Part shown: positions 2,544 through 46,752 of the stretch, piece after piece
Position numbering within the stretch: position 1 is the first letter of the stretch
Layout of the letters: every line of letters starts with the position of its first letter
NCBI GenBank assembly: GCA_963816365.1
Contig: CAWFKG010000005.1
Coordinates: forward strand, 457,850 to 521,849
Length of the DNA stretch: 64,000 nucleotides
Direction of reading: 5' to 3'
Source: an uncultured Bacteroidales bacterium
Lineage (GTDB): Bacteria; Bacteroidota; Bacteroidia; Bacteroidales; VadinHA17
Notes under the pieces: model-generated
The model's database searches: none
Told to the model about the DNA's origin: nothing
The model's input: the letters and a program-made list of their open reading frames with translations, nothing else
Made by a program: the position numbers and the translations under genes

Positions 2544-2591
2544 TTTTAGAAATTTAGGTTATGTGAACTGATTACAGCAATTTCTGCAGCA

Positions 2592-4725: not shown

Positions 4726-4730
4726 ACAAA

Positions 4731-20208: not shown

Positions 20209-20372
20209 TTCCCCATTAATTGAGAGAATTAAATTTAGTACTTTTTTTGAATCAGAGAAATAATTTAATGAATTTTAACTTTTAAAGACAATTATATCGT
20301 TCTTCAGAGGAGAAATTGTCCCAGCTGACTTAGTACTTGCTTCCTCTGCAATAGGGTATGTAACAGGATAAA

Positions 20373-20401
20373 GTAGAGACGCCCAAATTGGGTGTCTCTA
20401 C
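20373..20401 (-). terminator. GTAG-type hairpin 20 nt downstream of the yidC stop
   Basis: GTAGAGACGCCCA aat TGGGTGTCTCTAC, 13 bp with one G-T pair. The T tract is weak (CTACTTTATCC on the minus strand). Confidence 0.5.
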
Positions 20402-20420
20402 GTACAATAGATTGAATATA

Positions 20421-22390
20421 CTATCTTTTAGGAGGATTGATACCTCTTTGTTTTGCAGCTGCTTCAAGCCGCTGCTGCCATTTTGACTTTTTAAGCGGTT
20501 TCTTTTTATTCTGCCTCCAGTGTCGCAAGGACAGCGTCAGCATTTATAAATCTTTTTGAGATCATATTCTGTGCATAAGTAAGCATATTAGCGAGGAAAT
20601 AATAATATGTAAGACCTGATGAGAAATTATTAAGGATGAGCATGAACATTACAGGCATCATATACATCATCAGCTTCATGCCCGGCTGATCGGAACCCGG
20701 TGAGGAACCGGTCATCTTCATTGTCAGTCAGTGTAGAGGCTGTCATAAGAAGTGTGAACAGGCTGACATGATTTCCATACATAGGTATCGTAAACGGAAG
20801 CTTCAGAATAGAATCATACGTTGAAAGGTCAGTGGCCCAGAGGAAATGTTCCTGCCTTAATTCAATTGACACAGGGAAAAACCTGAACATGGCAAAGAGA
20901 ATAGGCATCTGCAGCAGCATTGGCAGACAGCCTCCCATCGGATTCACCCCTGCCCTTTTATACAGATCCATGGTGGCCTGTTGTTTTTTCATCGCATCTT
21001 CCTTCTTCGGAAATTTCTTTCCAAGCTCCTCGACCATCGGTTTCAGGACCTGCATTTTTGCCTGCGACTGATACGATTTAAAAGTCAGCGGAAACAGAAC
21101 AACCTTTATAATGATAGTCAGAATAAGAATAATTAAACCATAATTGCTTATAAAACGGTTTAGCCAGTTAAAAATCGGAATAATTGCAAACCTGTTAATC
21201 CACCCTATAATATTTTTGCCAAGGAAAACAAGTTTATCGAGCTCAAGACCTTCTTTTTTAAGAATTGTAAAGCTGTTTGGCCCATAGTACAACTTCATGG
21301 AAATAGAATTTGCAGAAGCAGGATTATAAGGTACTCCCAATTCAGATGTGTAATATCTTGTATACTTAGGAGACGCTAATGTCCGCGTTGATGACAGGGA
21401 GCCATTTAGAAAGTAATCATTAGAAACAATGACTGACGAAAAGAACTGATCCTGAAATGCAACCCAGCTCAGTTTGGTCGTTACATCAACTTTTTCTAAT
21501 TCTTTACTCTGGCTTCGCTTTAAGTATATAACATCGTCCTGATAGTATTTATACGTAATGGTGGAATAATTCTCTTCATTTTGCCTTCCCTTTTCCTGTT
21601 GCGGCATATACATTTTCCAGTCCAGGGTAATGCTGTTCTGATTTGAAGCAATAATGTCCTCCATAGATTTGAAGGTAACATTAAAGTCAACCATGTATTT
21701 ATCAGGTGCAAGGGTGTATTTGTATTCAATATATTTATCCTCACCAGCTAGCAATCGAAGAACAACGCTTTGAGGCTGGGAACTAACGACATAAGATTTT
21801 TGCTCCGATACTGGTTTGAAATAGAGGTTGTTAGTCTGAACAGCTTTGTTATCACTGGTAAAAAAATTAAATCCAAAAACTGTTGAGTCACCTGAAAATA
21901 AAATAAGAGGCTTAGAGTCAAATGTCTTATAATCTTTTATTCTGGCGGAATAGACTCTTCCCCCCTTAAGGGAAATTCTTAGTTCAATTTTATTGTTTTC
22001 AAGAGTAATAAAGTCATTTTCACCAGTCGCAGAAGCTGCAAATGCTCCATACTGGCTTATATCTGTCTTTGTTTCCGCCTGCTTGGATATTGGATTCGCT
22101 ATGGCAGCCGGCTGCAAACCTAAAGAATCAGATTTCTGCTTCTCTGGTGTATTTCCAAGCTTGCCATTGATCTCATTTATTTTTGCCAGTACATCCGGCT
22201 GATTTGGTTTGAATCTGAGTGCATTTATATATTCTGTTCGTGCAGTTTCAAGATCACCTTTGGCATAATCAGATTCAGCAACCACAACAGCCTTTTCATA
22301 GGCTTTATTCATCTTATTGCTATTATATATGCTGAACCCTATAAAGATCAGAAAAATCAGTATAAGGCCTGTTATTGTATTTCTATCCAT
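20421..22390 (-). CDS. yidC: membrane protein insertase YidC (long Bacteroidota type); frame-disrupted at least 2 times
   Basis: 20630..22390 has ..WINRFAIIPIFNWL...ILTIIIKVVLFPLTFKSYQSQAKMQVLKP...GGCLPMLLQMPILFAMFRFF. 20506..20721 has MKLMMYMMPVMFMLILNNFSSGLTYYYFLANM. The basic tail ..NKKKPLKKSKWQQRLEAAAKQRGINPPKR* ends at 20421 in a third frame. Confidence 0.85.
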
Positions 22391-22477
22391 TCTTCAGGGT
22401 GAGTTATTAATATTGATTTAAAAATTAATATTGATTTAGTAAATATTTCTCCGGATGTTGATATCTCTGTAGCGTTA

Positions 22478-24094
<1,617 letters not shown>

Positions 24095-24124
24095 TTATTT
24101 GTTTACTAAAAGATTTCATTATCA

Positions 24125-26120
24125 TTAATCATCAAGGCCTGACTGGTCTATCATCTTGACTTTTTCTTCAAGTGTTTTAATAAGTTTTTTTGCATTGTCT
24201 ATTTTCTCTTCAACTTCTTTGATCATGGTATCTGCATTTGTCGATTTTGCAAAGAAGCCAATATTATTCTCCCACAAAACTATATCGCCCTCAAGCTGTT
24301 TGATCTTAGTAAAGAATTTATCTCTTTCATTCCGCACTTTCCTTGATGCTTTCGGATTTGCTTTAAGGTTATCGAGCTTGGTTTTATATTTAAGTATGCT
24401 TTTATCCTCATCGCCGATTTTCAGCTTATCAAACTCTTTATTGATAGCGGTCCTGTATTTATTTGTTATCTCATCTTTAAGATTAAAAGGGACAAAACCA
24501 ATCTCGGTCCATTTCCTCTGCAGCTCTTTCAGTCGTTCGAATGCAGCCTGAACATCAGTTCCGGGATCAAATTTTTCAAGTTCCTCAATAATAGCAAGTT
24601 TTGCCTTTAAATTATCTTCATATGAAGTATCAAGAGCAGCAAAAAATTCAGTTTTCCTGTTGAAAAAATGATCACAGGCTTTGCGGAATCTTTTCCAGCA
24701 TCTTTCTGATTGTTTTCTTGGTACAGGACCTATTTCTTTCCATTCTTTCTGAAGTTTAATAAGAGCATCGGAGGTTGCTTTCCAGTCTGTGCTTTCCTGA
24801 AGAGCTTCTGCCTGAATACATAATTCTGTCTTCAGTTGAAGGTTATTCAGCTGGATCTCTTTGTTATCAGCATAGAATCCTCTTTTCTTCTCAAAGAAGG
24901 CATCGCATGCTTCCCTGAATCTCTGATATACTTTATTATTCTGTTTCTTTGGAGCAAATCCTATTGTCCGCCACATTTTCTGAAGCTCAACAACCTTATC
25001 GGCTCTCTCATCAAATTCCTTGAAGTTTTTAATTTCAAGCATGTTGATAGCATCCACTTCTTCACACAGACGCTATTTTAGCATCAAGGTTTTTCTTTTG
25101 ATCGTCTTTCTGCTTTTCAAAGTACTCGTGATGTCTCTTGTTGATCTGAGAAGTTGCTTCTTTAAACCTTTCCCAGATTTCATTTTTTGATTCCTGAGGA
25201 ACCGGTCCTATTTCACGCCATTGATTATGAAAGTCCTGCAACGATCTGAATGCATTAACAGGATTAGGCTCGAGTAAAAGTTCTTCAGCCTTTTCACACA
25301 AAAGAACCTTTGCTTCAAGGTTCTTTTTCAGATCAAGGTCCCTTAATTCCTTGTTGATCTTAATATAATCGTAGAATATTTCTACATAATGATGATAATT
25401 CTCCCAGAGGTCTTTGAGGGAGGTCTGGGGAACAACTCCGATTGAATGCCATTCATTCTGGAGAGATCTGAAATCATGAAAAGTCTTATTTATTGACTCC
25501 TCCCTGTTTACCAGATCTTTGATTTTATCAATTATATCGTATTTCTTCTTAAGGTTCTCATATTTTTCAGCTTCCTGAATCTTATTATAGTCAGTCTTCT
25601 TCTCTTTGTATTTTTCAAGCAGATGTTTTACACGCGCATCATCAGGATCAACCCATTGCCTGTAGTCTTCGATCTTACCCCCTTCAGCCAGAAATTTTGC
25701 TTTTCTTTCCTCTGATTCACTTTTTAATTTCTTATAAAACAGGATCTTAATCCGTTCAACATCTTCCCTGATCTCAACAGCAGGCCGGTTTTCAATAATC
25801 AGACCCAGAGTTTCAACCAGTTCATGTTTGGAGTATCCTGAATAATCAACCTGAGGAAGTTCAATATCCTCAAATGAATGAGTATCCTCATGAGCCGGTT
25901 CTGCTTTATCAGTGGCTGGTTTAGAATCTTCAACAGGCTTATGTACCTCATTTTCAGTGACTATCTCTGGTTGCTCTTCTTTCTTTTCAGCTTCTCCCAA
26001 AGAGTCAGGTTCTTGCGCGTTTTCCGCTTGAGTGGCATCCTCAGTTCCAGGGGCTTTTTCATTTACCCCGGATTGTTCTTCACGAACAGAGTCATCCGGA
26101 TTTTTCTTGGTCATAATCAA
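24125..26120 (-). CDS. DUF349 repeat protein; one frame disruption
   Basis: Fragments 25062..26120 and 24125..25057 both carry the repeating W..IG.VP....E.WERF..A.D.FF unit. The junction ..LDAKIA|LCEEVDAINMLEI is restored by deleting one T near 25068. Confidence 0.75.
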
Positions 26121-26372
26121 TCCTTTTATTGTTCAGCTCATTATCAGTAATTTTCACCACGGCAATCCATGGGAATTTCAGACTACGAAAGTATTGAAAT
26201 ATTTAATAAAACTCAAAGTTTTGATATAATAAATGTGAGAATCAGATATTAAGACCTTCTGATCATGATGCAGGGAAAGCAATATATTTTATCGATCGGA
26301 AGATTAATTCTATATTTGACAGATAATTCAGAATCTCATAATTCCGGGTACAATAACTTAAATAATTGATAT

Positions 26373-26552
26373 ATGCATAACTATGAAATTCTAATTTTTG
26401 TTGCGGCTATGGCTGTTCTGGCTATCAGGCTATATCAGAAATATGTAAAGAAAACTAAAGGCAATCAGGGATTTGATTCAAGGTCAGCAACTGGTACTTC
26501 GTTCCCATCCACTGCAAAAGATGATGATTATGAACCTTATTCAAAAAAATAA
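26373..26552 (+). CDS. possible 59-aa single-pass membrane protein (below the ORF-track cutoff)
   Basis: My translation: MHNYEILIFVAAMAVLAIRLYQKYVKKTKGNQGFDSRSATGTSFPSTAKDDDYEPYSKK*. It has one N-terminal TM helix and a polar tail. No homology was recognised. Confidence 0.3.
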   Translation: MHNYEILIFVAAMAVLAIRLYQKYVKKTKGNQGFDSRSATGTSFPSTAKDDDYEPYSKK

Positions 26553-26559
26553 ACAGGAT

Positions 26560-27855
26560 TCATCTCCTGTTTTTTGAAAGCATGTACCGGAATGGATTGA
26601 CTAACTTTTGAAGAAGCCTTATATTCTCAGTGATAATTTCTGCTGTACCCTGCATATTCTGAGTAAACTCAAGATTTGTTCCATATAATGTTGTGAGTCC
26701 CTCTGGAAGCTCAATTTCAATAACATATGCATCACCTGAGGGAACAAGCGATTTGGATTTTACAATACCTCTCACCATTCCATATTCAAGATAAGGGTAT
26801 CCGCTGAGTTTGATATTAACCAGCATGCCGGTTTTTACTTTACCCGATCTTTCCATCTTCAGATTTATCCTGCCAAGATAATTTCCGGCTTCCAGAGGAA
26901 CAATACTGACTACCGGTTCATCTTTTACAACTGACTGGTTTGCACTCCAGAACTTGGTAAATGAAACAATTCCTTCAATCGGAGAAATAAGAAGATAAGT
27001 GTTTTCCCATGAGTTTATCTGAGCATTCAGATTCAAAAATGATTCACGCAAAACAGAAACATATTTGTCCTTCTCCTCCACCTGGGTAATCCGGTAATCC
27101 TGAAGAAGCTGGCGTTTTTCAGCCAGTTCAATTGATTTTGCAGAGTGATCGAGTCGTGCCTGCTGCAGTTCAATATTTACCATCAACAACGCCTGGTGTG
27201 ATTTTTCAAGATCACTTTCTGGTATCACCTTGCCGGCATAAAGCGAGGAATCTCTGTTATATTTTTTGGTTTCAATCCGCTGATTTTCAGTATACCACTT
27301 TTCCTTAACGCTCAGCTTATTGATAAATTCCTGAATTCCTTTTATCTCATCGGTCAGTGAAGCTATTTTGTTTCCATAAAAATCATTGATTTGATAATTA
27401 TTCAGGTCAGACAGGTTCTTCAGAAAAGTTCCATAAAAACCCTGAAGTTCACCAAGCTCAGAAAACATTGGAAGCGATCTGTAAGACAACAGTTCAGGAT
27501 TCCTAATAGTGTCAATTGTCTGTTTCAGCAATTCGATCTCATTCATTGAAGCAGTTGTTTCCATTACAGCAACCAACTGACCGGCATGTACTTTTTCTCT
27601 TTCTTTTACATATAGTGATTTTATATGACCTGTTATTTTAGTCACAAGTGTTACAGGTGGATTTGTAGTAGTAATTTCAACAGGAGCAGGGATAGTATCG
27701 GGATATTTAATTAGCCAGGCAAAGAGAATAAAAAGGACAAATATCAGAAGCATTATTGTAGTGCCCCATCGAAGGATTCTTCTGGGTGGTCTTCCCATAA
27801 TTTCTTTTACAGGATCAGAATATAATATTTCAGGTCTCTGGTTCTTCATTTGCAA
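26560..27855 (-). CDS. HlyD-family secretion adaptor (bacteriocin/peptide export accessory)
   Basis: N-terminal TM (TTIMLLIFVLFILFAWLI), a lipoyl-like segment (GHIKSLYVKEREKVHAGQLVAVME), a long coiled coil and a C-terminal beta-barrel. The stop lies 2 nt from the upstream ABC gene. Confidence 0.85.
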   Translation of the reverse strand: MQMKNQRPEILYSDPVKEIMGRPPRRILRWGTTIMLLIFVLFILFAWLIKYPDTIPAPVEITTTNPPVTLVTKITGHIKSLYVKEREKVHAGQLVAVMETTASMNEIELLKQTIDTIRNPELLSYRSLPMFSELGELQGFYGTFLKNLSDLNNYQINDFYGNKIASLTDEIKGIQEFINKLSVKEKWYTENQRIETKKYNRDSSLYAGKVIPESDLEKSHQALLMVNIELQQARLDHSAKSIELAEKRQLLQDYRITQVEEKDKYVSVLRESFLNLNAQINSWENTYLLISPIEGIVSFTKFWSANQSVVKDEPVVSIVPLEAGNYLGRINLKMERSGKVKTGMLVNIKLSGYPYLEYGMVRGIVKSKSLVPSGDAYVIEIELPEGLTTLYGTNLEFTQNMQGTAEIITENIRLLQKLVNPFRYMLSKNRR

Positions 27856-27857
27856 TC

Positions 27858-30044
27858 TTAACTGCCTAGTTCAAGTTGATTTTTAACAAGATTATAATAG
27901 GCACCCTTTTTCCCGATAAGCGAATCATGAGTGCCGGTTTCAATTATCCTGCCGCTGTCAAGAACAACTATTTTATCAGCGTCTCTCACTGTGCTAAGCC
28001 TGTGTGCCACCACAATCACTGTTTTGCCTTCAAAAAATTCAGCCAGATTTTCAACAATTACTTTTTCATTATTGGCATCGAGTGAATTAGTAGCTTCATC
28101 AAAAATGATTATATCGGGATTTTTATAGATCACCCTGGCAATGAGCAACCTTTGCTTCTGACCTTCACTCAGGCCATGGCCATTTGCTCCTATTTTGGTA
28201 TTATATCCGAGCGGAAGTGACTCAATAAATCCTTTTATGTTTGCAATATCGACTGCCTTTATAAGTCGTTCTTCATCAATTTCTTCACTTCCGGGTGCAA
28301 TATTTGCAGCAATAGTGTCGGGGAATAAAAAGCCATCCTGCATTACAGCGCCCACTTTTTCCCGCCATATTTTAAGACTGATATTTGACAAGCGCAGGTC
28401 ACCTATAAGTATTTCACCTGAAACAGGATGATAAAACCCAAGAAGCATCTTCAACAGTGTTGTTTTGCCGCTTCCGCTGGTTCCGACAATTGCTGTTATT
28501 TTGTTTTCCTCAATGAACAGGTCGATATCTTTTAGTGCAAATGGCGAACGCGGACCCTCATACTGGTACGAAAGACCATTAAAATAGATATCCTTTTTTT
28601 CGGGAAGTTTCCGTACTTTAACTTCCGGATCAGGTTCCTCCTCTTCAAGATTATGAACTTCGGCAAGCCGGTCAAGACTCATTTTTGCATCCTGTGACAT
28701 ACGAAAAAAGCCAATTATCTGACTTACCGGCACATTAAGCTGACCTATAATAAACTGGACCGCAAGCATCATACCCAATGTCATATCACCCTTGAGAACT
28801 GCTGTAGCAGCAACAATTGTAATCAGTACATTGGTCACTTCATTTATAAAGGTTGCTCCGGCAGACTGATATTGAATGATGCTCAATCCCTTTACCTTCA
28901 ATCCAAACAAAATAGCCTGAAGCTTTTCCCAATCCCATCGCATGCTTAATTCACTCTGCGTCAGTTTGATCTCCTGCATTCCGTTAACAATATTTATTAA
29001 TTTGTTACCTGAAACTGACATTTGTTTGAAACGCTGATGATCAAGTCTTGCTCTTGATTTCATAAAAAGTGATACCCATAATATATATAATACCGACCCG
29101 GTAAGAAACAATGCAAGAATTTTAATATTGAACACTGCGAGCACAATGCCAAAAACTACCAGGTTGAAAAATGAAAACAGTATATTAAGACTGGCTGAAG
29201 TAAGAAACTCTTCAATCCTGTTATTATCTTCAATACGCTGAAGGATATCCCCGGTGAGCTTTGTATCAAAAAATGCAACCGGCAGCGACATAAGTTTCTG
29301 AAGGAATCCCGAAATGATAGCCACATTAACCCTTGATCCGATATGAAGCAACAACCAGCCTCTTATGAATTCAACCGACATTCTGCCGAAAACCAGGGCC
29401 AGCTGGGCAAAAAGGATCAGGTAAATAAAACCTATATCATTATTATTCAAACCAATATCGATAATCGCCTGGGTAAGGAATGGTATTAAAAGCTGTATGC
29501 AACTTCCCAGTAACAGGCCTAACACAAGCTGATAAAAATATTTCCTGTAAAGACGGAAATATTTAAACAGAAATTTAAATCCGTTTGCCTTTTCCTTTTC
29601 ATTCTCATTCTCAAAAAGCGATGGTGTTGGTTCAATTATTAATACAAGTCCTGATGGTTTTCCATCGACAACCGTAGATGTCCAGTTTTTGACAAATTCA
29701 TCACGGCTGAATTTTACCAGACCCACTGCCGGATCGGCAGCCCATATTTTATCATTTTGAATTTTATAAACTACGATGAAATGTTTCTGCCTCCAGTGTA
29801 CGATACATGGCAGAGGAACATTCTCAGTCATTATTTCAAAAGGAATTTTCACTCCTATTGTTCTGAATCCCAATGAATCCGCAGCTTCAGAAAGTCCAAG
29901 AAAAGAGACTCCTTCACGGGTTATATAACATTTTTTACGGAGAGATTCAAGTGAAAAATTCATTTTGTAAAATCCTGCCACCATTTTAAGGCAGGCAGGT
30001 CCGCAATCCATTGCATCAGGTTGTTTTACAAAAGGGAAAGACAT
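27858..30044 (-). CDS. peptidase-C39-domain ABC exporter (PCAT; double-glycine leader-cleaving transporter)
   Basis: N-terminal C39 domain with QPDAMDCGPACLKMV (catalytic Cys) and HWRQKHFIVVY (His). Six TM segments. NBD with GTSGSGKTTL, LSEGQKQRLLIAR and IIIFDEATNSLD. Confidence 0.9.
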   Translation of the reverse strand: MSFPFVKQPDAMDCGPACLKMVAGFYKMNFSLESLRKKCYITREGVSFLGLSEAADSLGFRTIGVKIPFEIMTENVPLPCIVHWRQKHFIVVYKIQNDKIWAADPAVGLVKFSRDEFVKNWTSTVVDGKPSGLVLIIEPTPSLFENENEKEKANGFKFLFKYFRLYRKYFYQLVLGLLLGSCIQLLIPFLTQAIIDIGLNNNDIGFIYLILFAQLALVFGRMSVEFIRGWLLLHIGSRVNVAIISGFLQKLMSLPVAFFDTKLTGDILQRIEDNNRIEEFLTSASLNILFSFFNLVVFGIVLAVFNIKILALFLTGSVLYILWVSLFMKSRARLDHQRFKQMSVSGNKLINIVNGMQEIKLTQSELSMRWDWEKLQAILFGLKVKGLSIIQYQSAGATFINEVTNVLITIVAATAVLKGDMTLGMMLAVQFIIGQLNVPVSQIIGFFRMSQDAKMSLDRLAEVHNLEEEEPDPEVKVRKLPEKKDIYFNGLSYQYEGPRSPFALKDIDLFIEENKITAIVGTSGSGKTTLLKMLLGFYHPVSGEILIGDLRLSNISLKIWREKVGAVMQDGFLFPDTIAANIAPGSEEIDEERLIKAVDIANIKGFIESLPLGYNTKIGANGHGLSEGQKQRLLIARVIYKNPDIIIFDEATNSLDANNEKVIVENLAEFFEGKTVIVVAHRLSTVRDADKIVVLDSGRIIETGTHDSLIGKKGAYYNLVKNQLELGS

Positions 30045-30162
30045 CTGAGGTTTCCGGAAATTTATTTATCGACAGAGTAAAGATATTTATATTTTGGTCA
30101 GGATAATCCTCATCTGGCATATAAAATAGGAACCTGATACACCATAAGAAGAGTTTTGGATT

Positions 30163-30774
30163 TTGGAAATACTATATTTGCCTATTGATACCACAAACCA
30201 CAACGGGTTGTTTAAAAGAATTTCTGATATTAATATAATAGATGGTGTTCGCAATCAGGATGATAAGATTCTGAATTGGCTTTATGACAACTATTTTCAA
30301 TCTGTTAAAAATCATGTTCTAAGTAATAGCGGTTCCGAGGAAGATGTTTCAGATGTATTTCAGGATTCCATAATCGTACTTTATAATCAGATAACCGACG
30401 ATAATCTGAATCTCACAACCGATCTGAAAGGGTATTTTTTCGGAATAGCCCGCAATGTCTGGAGCTCACAGCTCAGAAAAAAGCAAAGAACCGTGGAACT
30501 TGATATTGATCCTCCTGATGAGGAAGAACAGGAGGAACAGTCTGATCCGGCTTTGGAGCGTATAATCAGCAGGGCATTTCAGAAACTAAAACCCGATCAG
30601 CAAATGGTACTGAATTTATTTTCAGATGGTCAGACCTATGAAGAGATTGCAATAAAAATGAATCTGAAAAATGAGGTTTATGCCCGAAGGAAAAAATATC
30701 TGTGCAAGGAAGCTCTCCTGGAGCTGGTAAAAGAAGATCCTGAATATCAGGAATATATTCGTCTCCAGAAATAA
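30163..30774 (+). CDS. sigma-70 family factor with regions 2 and 4 only (ECF-like)
   Basis: Region 2-like: DVSDVFQDSIIVLY...YFFGIARNVW. An acidic linker follows. Region 4 HTH: LKPDQQMVLNLFSDGQTYEEIAIKMNL. There is no N-terminal ATG; the candidate starts are TTG 30163 or TTG 30208. Confidence 0.7.
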   Translation: MEILYLPIDTTNHNGLFKRISDINIIDGVRNQDDKILNWLYDNYFQSVKNHVLSNSGSEEDVSDVFQDSIIVLYNQITDDNLNLTTDLKGYFFGIARNVWSSQLRKKQRTVELDIDPPDEEEQEEQSDPALERIISRAFQKLKPDQQMVLNLFSDGQTYEEIAIKMNLKNEVYARRKKYLCKEALLELVKEDPEYQEYIRLQK

Positions 30775-33700
30775 AATCCGGCATACAATAAGAGAATAGT
30801 AAAATATTGAGTATGGTAATTACCTTCAGTTTATTTGAATGATACAGGGGAGCATTGTTACCGTAAACTACCAGAGCTGACCAGAAGTACGGATGAGACC
30901 TCAACTGATCGGAATTCTTTAAAAATTCCATTCTGGCTTTCTTTAAAGAAACACTCTTTGAATATCCTTTTTTAAGATTATTATAGAACATCTCAACAAT
31001 CTCTGTCCCTGATTTATCTTCAATCTCCCACATCGACATGACAACAGACTGACTTCCCGAATAAATAAAGCCACGGGCAAGACTTAAAATGCCTTCACCT
31101 GAATATAGCAATCCGGTACCCGTATTGCACGAACTCAGAACTACCATTTTTGCTTTAAGCGGGATGCCATAAATCTCGATATGTTTTGAGATAACCATCT
31201 TCCGGAGAATCATCATCCTGGCTGAAAATCAGTGTTGAATGCATAGGCTCCTTGTCATTGAGAAGAGTATGCATTGCCAGATGTATTATATCATATTTCC
31301 CTGATTCCTTCTTAAAAACTGATTCTTTTGCTTCACTGTTCTCATATAGAATTCCATTAGTCAGATCAGTTACGTACTTTGCCTCCTGCCGTGCAAACGG
31401 CAGATCATTCAGCTTTCCTAATCCTCCCTGTCTTGACATTATAGCTGACTGGATATCAATTGGTTTGGGATAATCGGGAGCAAATGCTATCAGCTTGTTA
31501 GTCTGTGCTGTTATCTTTCTTTTCTGATTCCGCGGTAAATGTTGCTGAATAGGTATACGAAATATCAAAAATGTTCATAAGATAATTAAGATCCCTGTAC
31601 ATAAGGCCTTTCTGTGAACCTTAGAAGCAGGAATAGTTTCAAATGGAATATATGAAAGAATATTATCTGGTGATATACATATCTTATCAGAAATCAGATA
31701 AGGTCTTACAGGCTCAATCAGGGATTTATACAATCTATCACCGACCTCCTGAAATTCTTTAAAATTCAGAGAGGAATTATCAGTTGGTGAGGGCATCGCC
31801 AATAAGTCTCTGAATTTTCGTACATCTTTAAAAAATAATGAATCAACCGGAAGTACAATTAACTGCTGGTTTTTTCTGTTTGCAACAAAAGTATATAGCA
31901 GGTTATCAGACAATATATAATTCACATAATTCACATTATTGCCAAGGATCTTTGGAATATCCTTAAGCTCAGCCACATGAGTATTATATTTGATCGAATA
32001 ATAGACCGGATATTCTTTTTCAAATACCAGAATCAATGAATCTCTGGATCGTATAGCGTCCAGAAGGTTTTCTTTCAGCTTATTGATCAAAACAGGGTTA
32101 GTTGTCTCCATAGCAGCCTCTTCATACAATCGTGCATTAAACAGACTTATATCCCCTTGCAGCTTCTTCTCATAATCACCTATTCCGGATGGAATATTAA
32201 GTTGTGTAGCCTGTAATTCCCTGGTTGAGGTCAGCAATCCTGCAACCTTGCTTTTTTCCGAATACTCGAATGCTTTTTCCAGATAAACACGATCAGTGTG
32301 TCTTATTGAAAAGCAGGTTGAAATCGCGTATTGCATTAAGATAGGAATCCCGGTACCGGTCACCCAGAATCAGTCTGCTGTCATCCTCACTTATATTTAT
32401 CCTGACTTTTTCAAGGAGCGAAACTATTAATTCAGAGGTATTTGCAGCAGCTAACAGGGATTTCTGGTCTTTCGATTTTTTATAGATATCCCACAATATC
32501 CTGTATTTTGTATTTAGTATCCTTAAAGATAGTCTGTCGGGTTTTATTTTATCTATTGAGGGATTAATATAGTTTTCCGCGATCTTTGCCGGCTGGTCAG
32601 GTATAAGCAGAGACTGAATTGTTTCAAGTGCGTTTAACAGTTCACCGTCATCATCCTGCGACAGGGAATATCCAATAAGAACACGGGTCTTAAGAGAGAT
32701 ATCCTGGTCATTATTCTGAAGGTATTCAATGCACTTTTTTAAACAGGCGAGCGACTTTTTATTATCAATTTTGTAATCACGAAGGTAGCTGGCATAATTG
32801 AGAAGAACCTCTATATAGCTGCGATTAGATAATCCATATCTGATTTTTGCCCGCGTCAGAGCATCTTTGAGTAACTCCTCACCCTGTTGTGCTTTACCAT
32901 TGTCGGCCAAAAAAATTGAGTAACTATTAATTATATTGTATGCCATTGGTGAATTATTGGCAATTGCGATAGCAATTACCTTTTTATAATATTCCTCTGA
33001 TTCAGCCGTCAATCCAAGAGCGCCGTATGTTATTGCTAAACTATTTATAAGGTTTATTGAGTTGTCACTGGTACTTAAGTTAAATTGCTTATAAACTGAT
33101 TCTGCTTTATCCAGATATATCTTAGCCTTAGAGAAATCTGCAAGCCTGGTATAACACCCACCGAGGTTTCCATAAAGACCTGCTATTATCTCGGGTGAAA
33201 CTTTTCCGGGTTTGACGTCTACGATAGCCAACCCATTGTTAGAATAAATCAATGTATTTTCATACTCCTGCAATTCCAGGAATGCCGCACTGAGACTAAG
33301 GTAAATTCCTGCAAGAACAGGACTGGATTCTCCATTTATTTTTTTCTCAATCTCGAGTGATTTGAATGAATACTCTTTATGCTTTTTAAAATCGCCAAGA
33401 CTAAAGTATGCTGACCCCAGATTATAAAGGGCTTTGGCATAACGTTCGTCGTATTCGCCGTCTTTCCCTTTAATTGCTAAACAAAGATCGAGGTACCTGA
33501 TTGATTCATTATAATCCTTTTTTATAAGATTATAGATCCCTATGATATAATATGATTCTGATAATAATGTATCTGCAATATTATTGGCCTTGATTTTCAG
33601 AATTAATTTTTCAACTATAGGACCGCTATTTGCCGTATCTCCATTTTTGAGCAGATGCATAAGCGCTTCATTGATCTTTTCAATCTCCTTTTCCGATTTC

Positions 33701-33855
33701 TCAATTGTACCTGATTCTATATAACTAAATGAATCATGGTCCATAGATGGAACGCAAATAATTCCCTCGCCGGCAACCTGGGAGTACCGGATAATCGTGG
33801 AAGAAAGAAGCAAACAAATCAGACCAAATCGGGAAATTTGCTTTTTAAAATTCAT
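30566..33855 (-). CDS. signal-anchored TPR-repeat CHAT-domain (caspase-fold) protease; frame-disrupted at least 4 times
   Basis: Fragment 32293..33918 is best started at ATG 33855 (MNFKKQISRFGLICLLLSS) and contains many TPRs. Fragment 31575..32363 follows. An unlisted frame segment near 31480-31600 reads KGLMYRDLNYLMNIFDISYTYSATF. Fragment 31155..31568 has the His box IIHLAMHT. Fragment 30566..31216 has the Cys box VVLSSCNTG, then HPYFWSALVVYG and a terminal TM. The junction KTY|EIYGIPLK is restored by deleting one C. Confidence 0.75.
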
Positions 33856-34088
33856 GAAATGACTGCATAATTTAGAGATTCCCCATTTATGTATTCCGGC
33901 CAAAGATAATAAAACCAAATCAAAATCATTATTTTGTTAAAAAATCAAGGTCTGTAATTATCTGATTATGTGTATATAAAAAAATATTTCAAAAATAATT
34001 GATTTTTTCGTGTCACAAATCGATATCATCCGACATGTATGAGTGTAGAAATTTAAATTAAGAATTACCCTGACTAATAAAAAAAGCT

Positions 34089-34223
34089 ATGAAAACCCTG
34101 AATTCAAAATTAATGAGTGACATTTTTGCAGAATTTGAACTTTCCAATGAAGAGATGATTTGTGTTCGTGGCGGAGAAGGTGATCCGATAATAAAACCGG
34201 TTCAGCCTCCGATAATAATCTGA
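34089..34223 (+). CDS. 44-aa double-glycine-leader peptide precursor (predicted PCAT substrate)
   Basis: My translation (below the ORF-track cutoff): MKTLNSKLMSDIFAEFELSNEEMICVRGG|EGDPIIKPVQPPIII*. The leader L(-12)S N E E(-8)M(-7) I C V(-4)R G G fits the LSxxELxxIxGG consensus. A dedicated terminator follows. Confidence 0.7.
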   Translation: MKTLNSKLMSDIFAEFELSNEEMICVRGGEGDPIIKPVQPPIII

Positions 34224-34234
34224 AAGCTTTTATC

Positions 34235-34260
34235 TCTGTTTTAGAGAAAACAGATTTTTT
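34235..34260 (+). terminator. intrinsic terminator of the GG-peptide gene
   Basis: TCTGTTTT (34235-34242), loop AGAG, AAAACAGA (34247-34254), then T6 (34255-34260). Confidence 0.7.
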
Positions 34261-34438
34261 GTTGTCTTATACTGTAAGTTATTTATTGTAAGATTCATCT
34301 TATAATATAATAAGTAATCAGAATTGCTTCTCCGAAGCGTTGTTTATAGAGCTATGCTACTGATATTGTGCAGGTTATATGATTGCACTGAAGTGGTGAA
34401 TAATTAGGATTAATTTGTAACGATATAATATATTATCT

Positions 34439-35189
34439 ATGAAAACAATTGATTTTTCATATTTCATCGAGAGGTATAATGCCGGAGAGATGAGTGATAC
34501 TGAAATACAATGGTTCCGAAAGGAGCTTCAGGGAAATGATAAGCTCCGGGATGAGGTCAATCTCAGGAAGCGAACTGATGAGATTCTGAAACGGCAGAAT
34601 GTTATGGCATTACGCAGTAAGCTCTCAGCAATTGAAAATCAGAGAAAAGAGGTAAGTGAACCTGTAAAAAACTCAAAGAAGACGGCCTTAATAAGATATG
34701 CAGCCATTATATCGGGCATCATTCTTATTGGAAGTATCACATTGTACTCAGGGAAAAATCTGAACAGTGAGAAGATCATGAAACGCTATTATAAAGTGTA
34801 TGAGCCACCTACCAGCCAAAGGTCGGCTCTTGCCGGAACTGATGCCGAGTTCACTCTGGCACTGGAGTTCTATAATACGCATGATTATCAGAATGCAGCC
34901 ATTCTCTTCAGCCAGGATGCTTGAAAAGAAGCCAAATGATATGCAGACAGCTCTATTAAAAGGAGTATCAAATTTCGAAGAGAAGAAATATCCCGAAGCC
35001 AAACAGTCATTCGGAAAAGTAATTGATGACAAGAACAACCTTTATATTGATCAGGCTCAGTGGTATCTGGCCCTATGTTACCTCAACACCAATGAAACGG
35101 ACAAAGCAAAACAGCTCTTCAGAATAATTGGAAACGAGGGCGGCATATATAAAAAGGATGCTAAAAAGATAATAAGAGGACTAAAGTAA
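34439..35189 (+). CDS. single-pass membrane protein with an anti-sigma-like N-terminus and extracytoplasmic TPRs; one frame disruption
   Basis: 34439..34924 has FIERYNAGEMSDTEIQWFRKELQGNDKLRDEV and the TM IRYAAIISGIILIGSITLY. 34800..35189 has TPRs (KYPEAKQSFGKVI.., AQWYLALCYLNTNETDKAKQLF). The junction LFSQ|MLEKKPND is restored by deleting one G near 34917. Confidence 0.6.
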
Positions 35190-35268
35190 ATAGCTGAAGG
35201 AAATCTATTATTTAAAATTAATAACGTGTCAGTAACTCACGGGAATAGCCAGGATAATAGTCAACAAT

Positions 35269-36027
35269 ATGGATTCATCGAATAAAATGATAAGTTGTCC
35301 AACAGTTTTAACAGGGATCTCTCATGAAATGAGAACGCATATGAATGCAATCGTTGCATTCTCGTTTCTCATGAAAGATAATTGTTGCAACAATTCAGAC
35401 CGCGATGAATTCAGCAGCCAGATTTTAATTGCATGTGAACAGTTAATTGGTTTGTTTGATAGCTTTCTTGATTCAGCCATAATTGATACGGGTAATTCAA
35501 AGGCTGATTCAAAAATTTGCAGGCTCGATACTTTTCTTGATGACCTTCTTTCAGAATTCAGGGAAGAACTAAAAAAAGAAGGTCATAAGGAAATTGAGCT
35601 TGTCACCGAGATCCAATTCTCAAATTCTGCAGAGGTTAATATTGATAAGAACAAGATTTACAGGGTAATTCGAAGTCTGTTCCAGAATTCAATAAAAAAC
35701 ACTAAGTCAGGGTATATCAAAATTGGATACTTTCTCAGGGACGATAAAGTAAACTTCTATGTTCTCGATTCCGGCCAGGGCTATTTCAAATGTAAGGAAT
35801 TCATTCAGACAGAGGATTTAAATGAATCGCTGATACTTCACAATGATACCTATACAGCTATCAATATTACCCTTGCCAAGAAATTAATTGAGATGCTTGG
35901 AGGAACTATTTTCGTTGAATGTAACGGGCTTACAGGAACAGGAGTCTATTTCTCTGTTCCGGCAAAGTTAGTAGTCAGCTCTGACATTAATATTAATAAA
36001 TATTTAAATACCATGATCGCGATCTGA
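35269..36027 (+). CDS. soluble histidine kinase core (HisKA plus HATPase_c) with no input domain
   Basis: H box GISHEMRTHMNAIVAF. N box FQNSIKNTKSG. G boxes LDSGQG and GLTGTGVYFSVP. No TM segment and no receiver domain. Confidence 0.75.
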   Translation: MDSSNKMISCPTVLTGISHEMRTHMNAIVAFSFLMKDNCCNNSDRDEFSSQILIACEQLIGLFDSFLDSAIIDTGNSKADSKICRLDTFLDDLLSEFREELKKEGHKEIELVTEIQFSNSAEVNIDKNKIYRVIRSLFQNSIKNTKSGYIKIGYFLRDDKVNFYVLDSGQGYFKCKEFIQTEDLNESLILHNDTYTAINITLAKKLIEMLGGTIFVECNGLTGTGVYFSVPAKLVVSSDININKYLNTMIAI

Positions 36028-36077
36028 TATAAGCTAATGTCATTTTTTTTAATGTCTGAATTCAATCAGCAAAAGAG

Positions 36078-36112
36078 CAAATGGCTGTTTTACCAATAGA
36101 CAGCCATTTTTT
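36078..36112. terminator. bidirectional hairpin terminator between the kinase gene and the ompA-like gene
   Basis: AAATGGCTGT (36078-36087) pairs with ACAGCCATTT (36099-36108). It is flanked by an A run upstream and a T run downstream. Confidence 0.7.
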
Positions 36113-38052
36113 TATTTTGTTAATTCAACAATCTTTGCTTCAGTCCGTCTGTTCAGTTTTCTGCCTTCGGAGGTGATATTATCTCCAAGAGGTGAAGTAT
36201 TTCCATAGCCTTTGTATTTTAGTCTGTCAGAAGAAATTCCCTTCTTTATAAGATAGTTGACGACTGACAAAGCCCTTTTTTCAGACAAGGTCTGATTATA
36301 TTCAACCGATCCGGTCGAATCGGTATAACCTCCGATTTCCATAACCAGATTCTTATTATCCGACAGAAGATTTGCCAGGTTATCTAACTCTGTCATTGAT
36401 TCCTGCTTTAACTGCCATGAGTCAATTTCATAGAACACATTTGACAGTTGCATCTTCTCTCCTACTTTTGCAGGATTCAGCACGATCCTTTTTATATATG
36501 GTTGAGAAGCACTGTGCTTTCCCGCAAACATAAAGTTTTCAGAATAAAAAAGATAACCTGGTTTACTGACATTTATGCCATAATTATAGCCTGAAGGCAG
36601 GCATACCAGAAAATTACCGGTTTCATCTGTGGCATTTTTAAAGATAATCTTGCCAGTTGACAGATTAATAAGCTCATAATCTGCCTTTAATAATTTGCCG
36701 GTTTCCTTATCGTATACCTTTGCCTTTCATATAAGAGACAGGATTCGGTCTTGCAGATTCATACAAATCAAAAGAAAATATATCTTTTCCGTTAGACTTA
36801 TCCCTGACAGATGAATAATAGGCTTTTTGTCCACCTGATTCTATTATCAGACCCATTTCATCATTCCAGGTATTAATAGGATAACCAAGATTCTTAGGCT
36901 CAGTCCATGTACTGTCATCTTTCAGCCTGGTCACATATAGATCAAACCCTCCCATTCCTACCCTTCCGTCGGATGCAAAATAGAGCGTTTTCCCATCGAA
37001 GTGAATGAAAGGTGACATTTCATCTCCTTCGGTATTAATCAAACCTCCCATGTTCACAGGTTCTATCCATTGATTCTTCGCATTCAATCTTGTATACCAG
37101 ATGATCTTTGCCGCCAAATCCTCCGGGTCTGCTGCTCGAAAAGAAAAGTGTTCTGCCATCTGCGCTTACTGAGGGTGTCGACTCCCAGTGTTTGGTATTT
37201 ACCGGAGCTCCCAGATTTGATGGTTCAGACCATTTGCCATTGCTGAAAGCTGAAAAATAAAGATCACAGTTTCCTAATCCGCCCGGCCGGTTACAGGCAG
37301 TAAAGTACATGTAACTTCCGTCGGAGGAAAGAGTTTGGGCTCCTTCATTCTGATCAGTATTCAACGGAGCTCCTGCATTGTATGCGTTCTGCCAGACCTT
37401 GTTCTCAAAATGACTGACATAAAAATCCTCCTGGACAATTCCTTTGAACCCCGGATTATTAGTTATATTTGGCTGCCGTGTAAACATAAGTGTCATTCCA
37501 TCAGCGGTTATGGAAGGCCAGTATTCGTCATCACTTGTATTTATCCCGGGACCTACACTTACCGGACTGAAGGGCACCGGTTTCTTCATTTCCTTGATTG
37601 CAAATTCACAGTTTTTAATGCTTTTTACATGCTACTGCTTTGTTCTTGGCTGACATCCCTTGCTGTGCCTCATATACCTTGAAATGAATCAGCGCATCAG
37701 CGTAACTTCCCGACATCATTTCAGCATTTGCCAGATTGAAAAAAACAGGCTTGAAAAAAAGAGAATCAAGCTTTACAGCTGATCTATAGTTAACGGCAGC
37801 TTCACTATACCGGTTTTGCTTTTCCAGCAGTTCTCCCAGCATAATATATGCTTCATAGAAAGTCTTATCAATAGAGATTGCTGACCTGAAATCATTTTCA
37901 GCTTTTATGAAATCGAGGTAATCATAAGAGGACACTCCTTCTTTATAAATTTTAAGAGCTCTATTTGAGTTTGTATGCAAGCTCTGGGCAATTCCTGACA
38001 AGGGAAAAAAACAGCAGATCGTTGAAATTAATATAGTTTGAAAGTACTTCAT
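36112..38052 (-). CDS. TPR / PD40 (TolB-like) / OmpA-C-domain outer-membrane-associated protein; frame-disrupted 3 times
   Basis: Fragment 37615..38052 has the signal peptide and TPRs. Fragments 37035..37589 and 36707..37159 have PD40 repeats (DEYWPSITADG, SADGRTLFFSS, FDGKTLYFASD). The frame of 36112..36531 extends upstream to ~36720 (KVYDKETGKLLKADYELINLSTGKII..) and ends in OmpA_C (GYTDSTGSVEYNQTLSEKRALSV). Confidence 0.75.
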
Positions 38053-45643: not shown

Positions 45644-46738
45644 ATGAACAAAAAACTACGGCTGCTCATAACCTCTCTCCTGATAATATTGCTAATTGGA
45701 ATAGTACTTTATCCGAAATATAAACCCTTTCTGTCCAAAAAAATTAAAGGTGATGGTATTTCTGGAACTCCTTTGCGGCAAACGCAGCAAAAACTAAATG
45801 CAGTCGGATATGTAATTATCCCGACCCATTTGAGTGAATTGATCAACCAGTCTGGAACACTAAAACCTGATGAAGAGGTTGATCTCTCATTTGAGACTTC
45901 CGGAAAGATCGTGGAAATTAATTTTACTGAAGGGACCCGTGTAAAAAAAGGAGATCTTCTGGCAAAAATAAATGATCAGCCGCTTCAGGCTCAGCTCGAA
46001 AAATTGCAGGCACAATTAAAGATGGCAGAAGCTAAAGAGTTCAGACAGCGAAGCCTTCTTAATAAAGATGCAATAAGCCAGGAAAGTTACGATCAGGTCC
46101 AGACTGATGTACAGACCATAAAGGCGGATATAAACCTCATCAAAGCTAATATTTCGCAGACTGAACTTAGGGCGCCATTTGACGGAATGATAGGATTGAG
46201 ATATGTGAGTGAAGGAAGTTTTACAACGATGTCAACCAAAATCGCAAAACTCATTAAAATCAGTCCTATAAAGATAGAATTCTCTATATCTGAAAAATAT
46301 GCTTCCGAAATAAAGATCGGCTATCCGATAACCTTTAAGATCGTTGGTAATGATCAGGTTTTTAATGCTTTTGTTTATGCAATTGATCCAAAAATTGATA
46401 TAGATACAAGAACGGTCGTTCTCCGTGCCATGTATCAGAATAAAAATGAAGAACTCAGACCAGGAACATTCGCCGGTGTGACATTGGAGCTATCCAAGAG
46501 AGATAATGCAATAGCTATTCCGACTGAAGCTTTGATACCACAGATGGATGGGGAGACAGTTTTTATTTATAAAAAAGGGAAGGCTCAGACAATAAAAGTC
46601 AGTACAGGACTCAGGACAGAATCAAAGATCCAGATTACTGACGGACTTAAATTCGGAGATACATTGATTACTTCAGGGATAATGCAACTGAGACAAAACC
46701 TTCCAATAGTGCTTGACACAGTGATTCTTAACAAATAA
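45644..46738 (+). CDS. RND efflux periplasmic adaptor (MFP)
   Basis: N-terminal TM anchor (no lipobox Cys). Lipoyl motif (GKIVEINFTEGTRVKKGDLLAKIND), coiled-coil hairpin and beta-barrel (ELRAPFDGMIG). Confidence 0.85.
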   Translation: MNKKLRLLITSLLIILLIGIVLYPKYKPFLSKKIKGDGISGTPLRQTQQKLNAVGYVIIPTHLSELINQSGTLKPDEEVDLSFETSGKIVEINFTEGTRVKKGDLLAKINDQPLQAQLEKLQAQLKMAEAKEFRQRSLLNKDAISQESYDQVQTDVQTIKADINLIKANISQTELRAPFDGMIGLRYVSEGSFTTMSTKIAKLIKISPIKIEFSISEKYASEIKIGYPITFKIVGNDQVFNAFVYAIDPKIDIDTRTVVLRAMYQNKNEELRPGTFAGVTLELSKRDNAIAIPTEALIPQMDGETVFIYKKGKAQTIKVSTGLRTESKIQITDGLKFGDTLITSGIMQLRQNLPIVLDTVILNK

Positions 46739-46752
46739 CCGGTATTATTAAT

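Follow-up and report, generated by a model that had tools for sequence, protein, structure and literature searches.

Does a double-glycine (GG) leader peptide that is encoded among the genes of a sigma factor module report back to that module after export, or is it only the module's secreted product? The question is raised by a locus in a 64,000-nucleotide stretch of DNA (the window) from an uncultured Bacteroidales bacterium of the VadinHA17 lineage (GenBank assembly GCA_963816365.1, contig CAWFKG010000005.1, positions 457,850 to 521,849). In this cassette, a C39 peptidase-ABC exporter (PCAT) and its HlyD-family adaptor lie beside an extracytoplasmic function (ECF)-type sigma factor, a protease with tetratricopeptide repeats (TPRs) and a caspase-fold CHAT domain, a 44-codon GG-leader gene, a single-pass transmembrane (TM) protein with TPRs, and a small histidine kinase-like protein. 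The answer we prefer, with a confidence that stops slightly short of even, is that the locus is a self-contained envelope signalling cassette, in which a sigma-driven, exported peptide feeds back on a CHAT/anti-sigma sensor. Gene content, membrane topology, conservation of the catalytic dyad, recurrence of the modules, a promoter motif and the co-variation of the peptide with its partners are the observations behind this reading; to them it adds, as putative steps, that the sigma factor of the window clade uses the peptide promoter, that the peptide binds a TPR domain and that CHAT cleaves the anti-sigma factor. The features concerned are the following, with positions counted along the window.

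26560-27855, minus strand: HlyD-family periplasmic adaptor of the exporter (Pfam HlyD_3, 25 bits; TIGR01843, E=7e-27, under its cutoff)
27858-30044, minus strand: PCAT, the C39 peptidase-ABC exporter (Peptidase_C39, E=8e-37, 127 bits; ABC_membrane; ABC_tran)
30078-30097, plus strand: conserved block AGTAAAGATATTTATATTTTG 5′ of the sigma gene, a candidate housekeeping-type promoter (at least 90% conserved in 79 aligned intergenic regions)
30163-30774, plus strand: ECF-type sigma factor, 203 amino acids (Sigma70_r2 and r4_2 only; TIGR02937 sigma70-ECF, 56.1 bits against a cutoff of 42.9)
about 30747-33855, minus strand: TPR-CHAT caspase-fold protease gene, frame-corrected (CHAT PF12770, E=1.4e-26; TPR_12)
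33957-33969, CHAT-peptide intergenic region: near-palindrome ATTATCTGATTAT (pattern ATWATCWGATWAT; columns at least 90% conserved in 55 aligned upstream regions)
34008-34039, plus strand: bipartite promoter-like element CGTGTCAC-N15-GACATG, about 50 nucleotides 5′ of the peptide ATG
34089-34223, plus strand: GG-leader peptide gene, 44 codons, divergent from CHAT, encoding MKTLNSKLMSDIFAEFELSNEEMICVRGG followed by EGDPIIKPVQPPIII
34089-34175 and 34176-34220, plus strand: the 29-residue leader and the 15-residue core EGDPIIKPVQPPIII of this peptide
34235-34262, plus strand: terminator-like hairpin with an 8-bp stem and the loop AGAG, then T6 (-7.7 kcal/mol)
34439-35189, plus strand: single-pass TM-TPR anti-sigma-like protein, in two frame pieces (TPR_6/TPR_2)
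35269-36027, plus strand: small cytoplasmic HisKA/HATPase protein, 252 amino acids, without an input domain (HisKA, 32 bits; HATPase_c, 27.5 bits, cutoff 26.4)

Listing of the open reading frames (ORFs) and profile searches bore out the gene map and domains given in a preliminary description of this DNA. The exporter has the C39, transmembrane and nucleotide-binding domains of a PCAT in one chain, with the HlyD-type adaptor adjoining; its TIGR01193 score of 428 bits lies under the equivalog-level cutoff of that model. Its gene diverges from the sigma gene across a gap of 118 bp. The sigma factor consists of regions 2 and 4 alone, in about 200 residues, and passes the ECF profile, as expected of an ECF (group IV) factor, and the cognate anti-sigma factor that such factors have encoded with them is supplied here by the TM-TPR gene. 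As read, the TPR-CHAT gene falls into four frame pieces (30566-33918, minus strand), which include the His box HLAMHT and the Cys box VVLSSCNTG. Its location and domains stand as first described, but the stop at 30566 is an artefact of 1-bp insertions at 30801 and 30812; the corrected gene is convergent on the sigma gene and overlaps its 3′ end by 28 bp, likewise in an intact orthologue (L001).

Alignment to an orthologous region that is 94% identical (L004) located six 1-bp indels in the CHAT gene and one, a 1-bp insertion at 34914, in the TM-TPR gene, while the HlyD, PCAT, sigma and kinase genes are free of 1-bp lesions. Like lesions were found in pyrG (three), yidC (two), a DUF349 gene (one) and a tolB/ompA-like gene (three); sites outside the cassette include 22886, 23207 and 23695 in pyrG, and 25070, 36717, 37103 and 37630, and none of the single-base lesions across positions 20300-37700 lies in a homopolymer. 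Substitutions relative to L004 are still 63-69% third-position in the CHAT and anti-sigma genes, and in relatives all the genes are intact, with CHAT proteins of 1055 or 1012 amino acids and a TM-TPR protein of 249. On these three grounds, namely the damage to essential genes, the retained third-position bias and the intact relatives, the frameshifts are evidently assembly or consensus errors in the source record, and the pseudogene caveat that had been attached to the CHAT and anti-sigma-like genes is ruled out.

The GG-leader peptide and its promoter

The peptide mini-ORF was found in nearly all orthologous loci that hold the interval, and its leader, ELSNEEMICVRGG, is conserved in about 65 orthologues and in distant loci. 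The leader fits the pattern that defines double-glycine leaders: glycines occupy -2/-1, positions -4, -7 and -12 are hydrophobic, and -8/-9 carries an acidic residue. The entropies at the three codon positions are 0.57, 0.60 and 1.13, so that third positions are about twice as variable as first and second ones, and we take the reading frame to be under coding selection; the conservation of the peptide ORF on which the preliminary description had staked its proposal is thus present. The consensus of the core is acidic-P-x-x-x-P-x-x-P-P-(I/V)-(K/R/I)-I, with the strongest conservation at the C-terminus, with basic residues kept at core positions -9 and -2, and with an acidic residue and then a proline after the GG. 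The cores have a median length of 15 residues and contain 27% proline; Cys occurs in one of 54, and the net charge is -1 or 0 in 44 of the 54. The switch between K/R and I/V at core position -2 probably has too few origins to give statistical power to a residue-level comparison of the peptide with the TPRs. No NCBIfam model matched the peptide, even at E=10. Taken as a whole, the peptide is probably a conserved, translated substrate of PCAT. Relative to L004, the peptide gene differs at 1 of 135 nucleotides, as against 2.6-7.3% in neighbouring genes, an unusually strong conservation at the nucleotide level.

A promoter-like element was found by phylogenetic footprinting 5′ of the peptide gene. 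The element, CGTGTCAC-N15-GACATG, is at least 90% conserved in the 55 aligned upstream regions; it occurs once in the 64-kb window, where none is expected, and once per locus in 55 related loci, always at the position upstream of the peptide. A relaxed pattern gave 67 matches, as against 0 in a reversed-sequence control. In distant subfamilies, GGGTTACC-N15-GAATA-like elements, with the same 8+15+6 geometry as the window element, lie 5′ of the peptide genes, and the pattern GGGTTACCTTTT-N11-GAATA occurs in 30 copies in 712 kb, compared with 3.5-6 expected, with eleven copies immediately 5′ of sigma genes and eleven 5′ of GG-peptide genes. A motif common to the promoter of a sigma factor and to those of nearby genes is a hallmark of ECF autoregulation. 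Since the distant motif precedes both sigma and peptide genes, the peptide gene is, by analogy, most likely a direct target of the sigma factor. Other copies were found 5′ of a sensorless kinase (L085, position 15294), 5′ of T9SS-type (type IX secretion system) secreted proteins of about 420 amino acids that carry a signal peptide and resemble a T9SS-tailed protein of L085 (L097, minus strand, 5161; L134, minus strand, 16059), and 5′ of Cys-rich GG peptides (L118, minus strand, 544; L150, minus strand, 288), the region of the last also holding an HlyD gene and a C39-VKOR fusion at 1725-3011 and 4479-6104.

The preliminary description had proposed a shared sigma-dependent promoter 5′ of positions 34089, 34439 and 30044. 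This did not hold, as the motif lies solely 5′ of the peptide gene: in the window clade it was not found 5′ of the sigma, PCAT, anti-sigma or kinase genes. Thus the autoregulated bipartite promoter is seen in distant subfamilies, whereas the window-clade sigma gene has a different conserved block instead, at 30078-30097, which in our own reading resembles the Bacteroidetes TAnnTTTG -7 element. The near-palindrome ATTATCTGATTAT, situated about 40 nucleotides 5′ of the promoter-like element, is a candidate operator and may perhaps serve a partner regulator of the orphan kinase.

Recurrence of the cassette and co-variation of its parts

A scan with one genome per species yielded 80 loci, all of them from metagenome-assembled genomes of uncultured Bacteroidales, whose sigma factors share 62-96% identity with that of the window. 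The locus scans used the narrower sigma alignments A2 and A4, the broad alignments A1 and A3 being too diverse for the locus finder. All 80 loci are syntenic across the whole 20 kb, including the housekeeping flanks (yidC, pyrG, the tolB/ompA-like gene and queE), and because these flanks are syntenic too, the synteny by itself is no proof of functional linkage. Every member of the cassette is maintained among the 80 loci, with the kinase missing from five, and HlyD was found in all orthologous loci with enough flank. Identities range over 73-100% for PCAT, 57-99% for sigma, 49-100% for HlyD, 38-99% for CHAT and 38-100% for the anti-sigma-like protein; the sigma factor additionally has more than 1500 close relatives in metagenomes. 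The peptide gene occurs as a single copy at the same core-genome position in 80 or more species; it has been duplicated once and lost once. The duplication, in L050 (13834-14150), is a tandem pair of peptide genes whose cores, DEDPVVKPNIPPVIL and DEDPVVKIVIPPVIL, differ at two positions. In L019 (13820-13960), the peptide gene and the kinase are both gone, PCAT, HlyD, sigma and CHAT are kept, and a promoter-like motif lies 130 bp 5′ of the anti-sigma gene.

More distant relatives carry the argument for linkage. The sigma family comprises 1827 clusters (50% identity) at E<1e-10, belongs to the Bacteroidota and has the C-terminal signature YA(K/R)(K/R)(K/R)K(Y/F)xCK...DPEY. From it we drew relatives with about 33-46% identity, in six gene-annotated contigs and 80 metagenome-scan loci, annotated with profiles built from the window proteins; six of the metagenome loci were set aside as members of the window's own syntenic clade. 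Among the 20 distant loci with at least 4 kb on either side, 18 contain the TM-TPR protein and 16 both the TM-TPR protein and TPR-CHAT, and the six gene-annotated contigs have flanks that bear no relation to those of the window. The TM-TPR gene lies directly 3′ of sigma on the same strand, often overlapping it, in 29 of 52 distant loci. A GG-leader mini-ORF diverges from CHAT at a distance of 55-250 bp in 10 of the 24 distant loci that include the 5′ flank of CHAT, with Cys-free cores of 10-24 residues, mostly containing proline. In L086, the sigma, CHAT, peptide, anti-sigma, kinase, PCAT and HlyD genes are all present in a different order and context, with HlyD adjoining PCAT, and in L150 a GG peptide, sigma, anti-sigma and HlyD form one block with a C39-VKOR protein nearby. 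The metagenomic loci L087 and L089 combine sigma, anti-sigma, CHAT and peptide genes, and Prolixibacteraceae and Draconibacterium are among the taxa to which family members belong. Because the set recurs in different flanks and orders, we reject a reading by adjacency alone and regard the modules as functionally linked; the proposal that they belong together, made at first from a single stretch, is thereby supported by non-syntenic, rearranged loci.

We also compared, for 41 orthologous loci, the pairwise divergence of the parts of the peptide with that of each protein or domain, using partial Mantel tests in which housekeeping neighbours were controlled for. Divergence of the leader follows that of the PCAT C39 domain (partial r 0.36-0.42, p~0.002). 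Such a relation would arise if this peptide is processed by the transporter, and it serves as the positive control of the method; together with the conserved leader pattern, it upholds the original assignment of the ORF as a GG-leader peptide. Divergence of the core (the last 12 residues) follows that of the periplasmic domain of the anti-sigma protein (0.21-0.23, p 0.002-0.005) and, more weakly, that of the TPR and protease regions of CHAT (0.11-0.15, p 0.03-0.07), whereas across the same loci it did not track the anti-sigma cytoplasmic domain (-0.07), sigma, PCAT or HlyD. The non-correlating cytoplasmic domain is encoded nearer to the peptide gene than the correlating periplasmic one, and chromosomal linkage therefore cannot explain the co-variation of the core with the anti-sigma TPR domain. 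The initial idea that the peptide is sensed by a TPR module gains from this a suggested link between the peptide and a periplasmic TPR domain, while the sensing itself is what we infer.

Membrane topology, proposed mechanism and alternatives

The TM-TPR protein begins with about 90 helical, cytoplasmic residues; a TM helix covers residues 86-105 or so, and beyond it come a juxtamembrane YYxxY...RS motif and about three periplasmic TPRs. Its orientation, N-terminus in and TPRs in the periplasm, is deduced. An AlphaFold2 model of the N-terminus has four helices (predicted local distance difference test score, pLDDT, 78), and all eight of its fold matches in the PDB are to anti-sigma factors, namely RslA (3HUG) and MucA (8Z6G), at E 1.5-6.8. 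Weak zf-HC2 matches were obtained for 6 of 20 family members, and no zinc ligands are present. Mainly from gene order, the TM-TPR protein is likely an anti-sigma factor; the anti-sigma-like label that it was first given fits its position directly 3′ of sigma in the distant loci and its weak fold neighbours RslA and MucA. An alignment of the diverse family (A5) shows that Arg128 of the 249-residue protein (at about position 34820 of the window) is invariant, and it may mark the place where a caspase-fold protease directed at Arg would cut. This residue lies within the juxtamembrane motif, YYxxY...(hydrophobic)(hydrophobic)RS. In L087 and L089 (9578-11100), which are Prolixibacteraceae-like, the anti-sigma protein is about 500 amino acids long and has several tandem N-terminal anti-sigma-like helical motifs ahead of the TM helix and the TPR domain.

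In almost every one of 94 full-length CHAT homologues, the N-terminal segment resembles a signal peptide, often with a lipobox-like Cys, and the C-terminus consists of a hydrophobic helix and, after it, a basic tail (RKRKYS, for example). Because of this signal peptide and C-terminal anchor, the TPR and protease domains of CHAT are predicted to be periplasmic and tethered to the inner membrane. All 94 of the homologues keep the catalytic His and Cys, and CHAT is predicted to be catalytically competent. Searches of PDB sequences with the CHAT protein or a CHAT-domain profile returned generic TPR matches or nothing, so that no similarity in sequence to solved CHAT structures was detectable. The TPR modules had at first been compared with the peptide receptors of RRNPP regulators; the comparison fits poorly, since both modules are predicted to lie in the periplasm and neither protein has a helix-turn-helix or other DNA-binding domain fused to its TPRs.

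The small kinase is an accessory member of the cassette. It has an H box (SHEMRTHMN), an N box and a G1 box (DSGQG), but no recognisable G2 box where its relatives have GSGLGLS, and the window protein may have weak kinase activity, act as a phosphatase or serve as a scaffold. All 20 substitutions between its gene and that of L004 are third-position, and no response regulator gene adjoins it. Sensorless kinases also occur in L085, behind the sigma motif, and in L086, with mutual identities of 23-35%.

In the mechanism that we propose, the single-pass TM-TPR anti-sigma factor would keep the ECF-type sigma factor sequestered at the inner membrane, and TPR-CHAT, as a second inner-membrane protein, would place an active caspase-fold protease in the periplasm. 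Freed sigma would transcribe the 44-codon GG-leader gene through its dedicated promoter; PCAT and HlyD would cut off the leader and export a peptide of some 15 residues, rich in proline, whose conserved C-terminus, PP(I/V)(K/R/I)I, is free; and this peptide would bind the periplasmic TPR domain of the anti-sigma factor, the TPR domain of CHAT, or both. Binding would license a site-1 cut by CHAT in the juxtamembrane region of the anti-sigma factor, with its invariant Arg, after which intramembrane proteolysis would free more sigma, giving an autoinducing, quorum-type positive loop. A more far-reaching form of this proposal is possible, and we hold it with distinctly more reserve: that the cassette is the first peptide-pheromone quorum-sensing system of the Bacteroidota, in which a PCAT-exported, proline-rich peptide is read by periplasmic TPRs, CHAT destroys the anti-sigma factor and the ECF sigma factor is activated, and that in variants of the family this sensor controls bacteriocin-like peptides or T9SS cargo.

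Several points weigh against feedback by the peptide. Its expression, export, binding and the cleavage that it would trigger are predictions from sequence. Between related sequences, partial Mantel tests readily give false positives, and the effects measured are modest in size; the fold matches of the anti-sigma domain lack statistical strength (E>1); and the motif of the window clade is absent 5′ of sigma, so that the promoter is assigned to this sigma factor by analogy. Moreover, the motif in related subfamilies precedes Cys-rich GG peptides and T9SS cargo, which fits a secreted output equally well. In about half of the relatives that contain CHAT, a GG ORF is missing beside it; PCAT is absent from the available flank in most of the peptide-bearing relatives; and genes for an outer-membrane partner, a site-2 protease or a response regulator are lacking in the vicinity.

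The alternative that survives best, which we consider unlikely while giving it serious weight, is that sigma, anti-sigma and CHAT respond to a different periplasmic cue (envelope damage, competitors or phage, for instance), and that the peptide is a secreted effector without feedback, be it an antimicrobial, a surface-active peptide or an interspecies signal. The presence of the sigma motif in related subfamilies ahead of Cys-rich, bacteriocin-like GG peptides (with a C39-VKOR neighbour) and of T9SS cargo would follow readily from this, and PCAT and HlyD are classical bacteriocin exporters, as in the Bacteroidetes bacteriocin loci that use a C39-domain ABC exporter (PMC6671954); DdvA/DdvS, a myxobacterial system considered below, is likewise proposed to sense an external cue and to turn on a defence island (PMC11506125). 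However, the core is unlike known class II bacteriocins: it is short, proline-rich, weakly anionic and nearly Cys-free, where a cationic or amphiphilic core of 25-60 residues would be expected, and no immunity gene was recognised at the locus. The bacteriocin with its own regulator, which the preliminary description had offered as its second choice, is weakened by these same properties. PADLOC gave no defence matches, and the single copy of the peptide gene at a fixed core-genome position in so many species also speaks against an effector of this kind. It is the co-variation of the core with the periplasmic TPR domain of the anti-sigma factor, suggestive as it is, that favours feedback over a secreted output, and it is the sole evidence that discriminates between the two.

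An improbable alternative takes the peptide or its precursor to be a substrate of CHAT or a securin-like pseudo-substrate inhibitor, such that CHAT would mature the peptide or the peptide would dampen CHAT. The peptide gene invariably lies next to CHAT and diverges from it, the core co-varies weakly with CHAT, including its protease domain, and separase, a caspase-fold relative, is restrained by securin; the basic residues at core positions -9 and -2 and the acidic residue-Pro pair after the GG could likewise be accommodated. This arrangement would nevertheless leave the anti-sigma factor's own conserved TPR domain unexplained, the co-variation with that domain exceeds the co-variation with CHAT, and the cores are diverse, without a common cleavage motif.

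Very improbable, in our view, is that the mini-ORF acts mainly in cis, with ribosome stalling or attenuation at Pro-Pro tuning read-through to the anti-sigma and kinase genes and with export as a secondary matter. A Pro-Pro pair lies 3-4 codons ahead of the stop, the stop of the window gene is 11 nucleotides 5′ of the hairpin and T-tract, and arrest peptides with RAPP-like ends are known (PMC12992588). The hairpin with its T6 exists, as stated when the peptide ORF was first credited with its own terminator, but it is no more stable than shuffled sequences, and under strict criteria a hairpin with a T-tract is kept in just 16 of 67 orthologous loci, at distances of 0-39 nucleotides; neither a conserved terminator nor an arrest-peptide attenuator is supported by this distribution. 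The C-termini of distant cores are unrelated, and the canonical GG leader, the co-variation with PCAT and the peptide-less locus L019 all point to an exported product that acts in trans. Finally, that the modules are unrelated and kept together solely by 20-kb regional synteny, as the shared housekeeping flanks of all 80 genome loci would allow, is scarcely credible and is already contradicted by the same set in other flanks and orders, by the common promoter motif and by the co-variation.

Two neighbouring features may be recorded alongside the cassette. An ORF of 59 amino acids with a single TM helix (26373-26552, plus strand) lies tail-to-tail with HlyD. Of 61 orthologous loci in which both of its neighbours, DUF349 and HlyD, are seen, 52 have it, at 32-100% identity. 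It has no Pfam match; an accessory or immunity-like role for the exporter is conceivable, but so is no relation to it. An RND (resistance-nodulation-division) efflux operon at 45644-51101 encodes a membrane-fusion protein, an AcrB-like pump and a frameshifted TolC-like outer-membrane factor; this last is the nearest possible outer-membrane partner for PCAT, and nothing links the two.

Comparison with known systems

Although the parts of the cassette are of known kinds, their wiring and their breadth in the Bacteroidota appear to be new. Our full-text literature search found no description of a system of CHAT with a GG peptide or of PCAT with a sigma factor, PADLOC and NCBIfam have no dedicated models for the cassette, and the accessible part of the ECF classification paper makes no mention of CHAT. 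The preliminary description had stated that no characterised system has this wiring. This holds for the whole, which is without a published description, but not for the leg from CHAT through the anti-sigma factor to sigma, for which DdvA/DdvS (PMC11506125), Craspase and DegS-RseA-sigmaE are precedents.

The cassette joins an ECF sigma factor under regulated proteolysis to PCAT peptide export. Peptide signalling from cell to cell is textbook knowledge for Gram-positive bacteria and is, to our knowledge, essentially undescribed in the Bacteroidota, which are a dominant phylum in guts, soils and sediments. The cassette offers a concrete candidate that can be put to the test, made up of a single promoter, a peptide of 15 residues and two receptor domains in the periplasm. 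If our proposal is true, the newly recognised control of sigma factors by caspase-fold CHAT proteins would extend from rare defence islands to a large and widespread family, a function could be assigned to many proteins now annotated as "CHAT domain protein", "TPR protein" or "sigma-70 family", and orthogonal sets of sigma factor, promoter and peptide would become available for synthetic biology in the Bacteroidota.

In the type III-E Craspase, the TPR-CHAT protease Csx29 cleaves Csx30, which binds RpoE. The likeness to the window lies in a TPR-CHAT protease that is tied to the control of an ECF-type sigma factor through cleavage of its binding partner, but Craspase is cytoplasmic, RNA-guided and activated by Cas7-11; none of the loci that we examined contains CRISPR or Cas7-11/gRAMP genes, and the Csx29 model scored 17 bits as against a cutoff of 300.

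For the export half of the cassette, the parallel is with the streptococcal ComC-ComAB-ComDE-ComX and Blp systems. There, a PCAT and an accessory protein mature and secrete a GG-leader pheromone, which is detected at the membrane and switches on its own production in a circuit that includes an alternative sigma factor. In streptococci the sensor is a histidine kinase with a response regulator, whereas in the window it would be the anti-sigma/CHAT pair, and the window kinase has neither a sensor domain nor an adjoining response regulator; furthermore, the host of the window is diderm, and the peptide may act in the periplasm. Within the Bacteroidota, the bacteroidetocin loci share with the window a GG-leader peptide and a C39-domain ABC exporter (PMC6671954). 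They encode a small class IIa-like bacteriocin along with a thiol oxidoreductase and a protein of five TM segments, and lack genes for sigma, anti-sigma and CHAT (PMC6671954); the matches to "CHAT" in the text of that paper are to an author's name, not to the protein. The core encoded in the window is by contrast a linear, proline-rich peptide of 15 residues.

DdvA of Myxococcus xanthus is a transmembrane anti-sigma factor with a periplasmic TPR-CHAT region, and DdvS is its ECF sigma factor; DdvA-like proteins have been reported solely in Myxococcota and a single species of Comamonas (PMC11506125). Both systems would place an ECF sigma factor under the control, from the periplasm, of a TPR-CHAT caspase-fold module with a His-Cys dyad, and for DdvA, too, a CHAT cut near the membrane, followed by intramembrane proteolysis and release of sigma, has been proposed (PMC11506125). 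The window differs in that the anti-sigma domain and CHAT are split between two membrane proteins, each with TPRs, its CHAT protein having a signal peptide and a C-terminal anchor and no anti-sigma domain, instead of the single polypeptide of the DdvA type. Its output is an exported GG-leader peptide, where that of DdvA/DdvS is a cyclic-oligonucleotide-based antiphage signalling system (CBASS)/CRISPR island, and the cassette is widespread in the Bacteroidota.

In the DegS-RseA-RseP-sigmaE pathway of Escherichia coli, a membrane-anchored periplasmic protease is activated by free peptide C-termini, and DegS then makes the site-1 cut in the single-pass anti-sigma factor RseA, which releases an ECF sigma factor. 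The comparable steps in the window are predicted from the genes alone, and the proteases differ in kind, that of the window being caspase-fold with TPRs and DegS a PDZ-containing serine protease. DegS is activated by misfolded porins, whereas the presumed activator in the window is a dedicated, sigma-controlled and PCAT-exported peptide, which would make the system autoinducing. In sum, DegS-RseA-sigmaE is the closest mechanistic analogue of the cassette and DdvA/DdvS its closest structural precedent, while ComC/ComAB parallels its export half.

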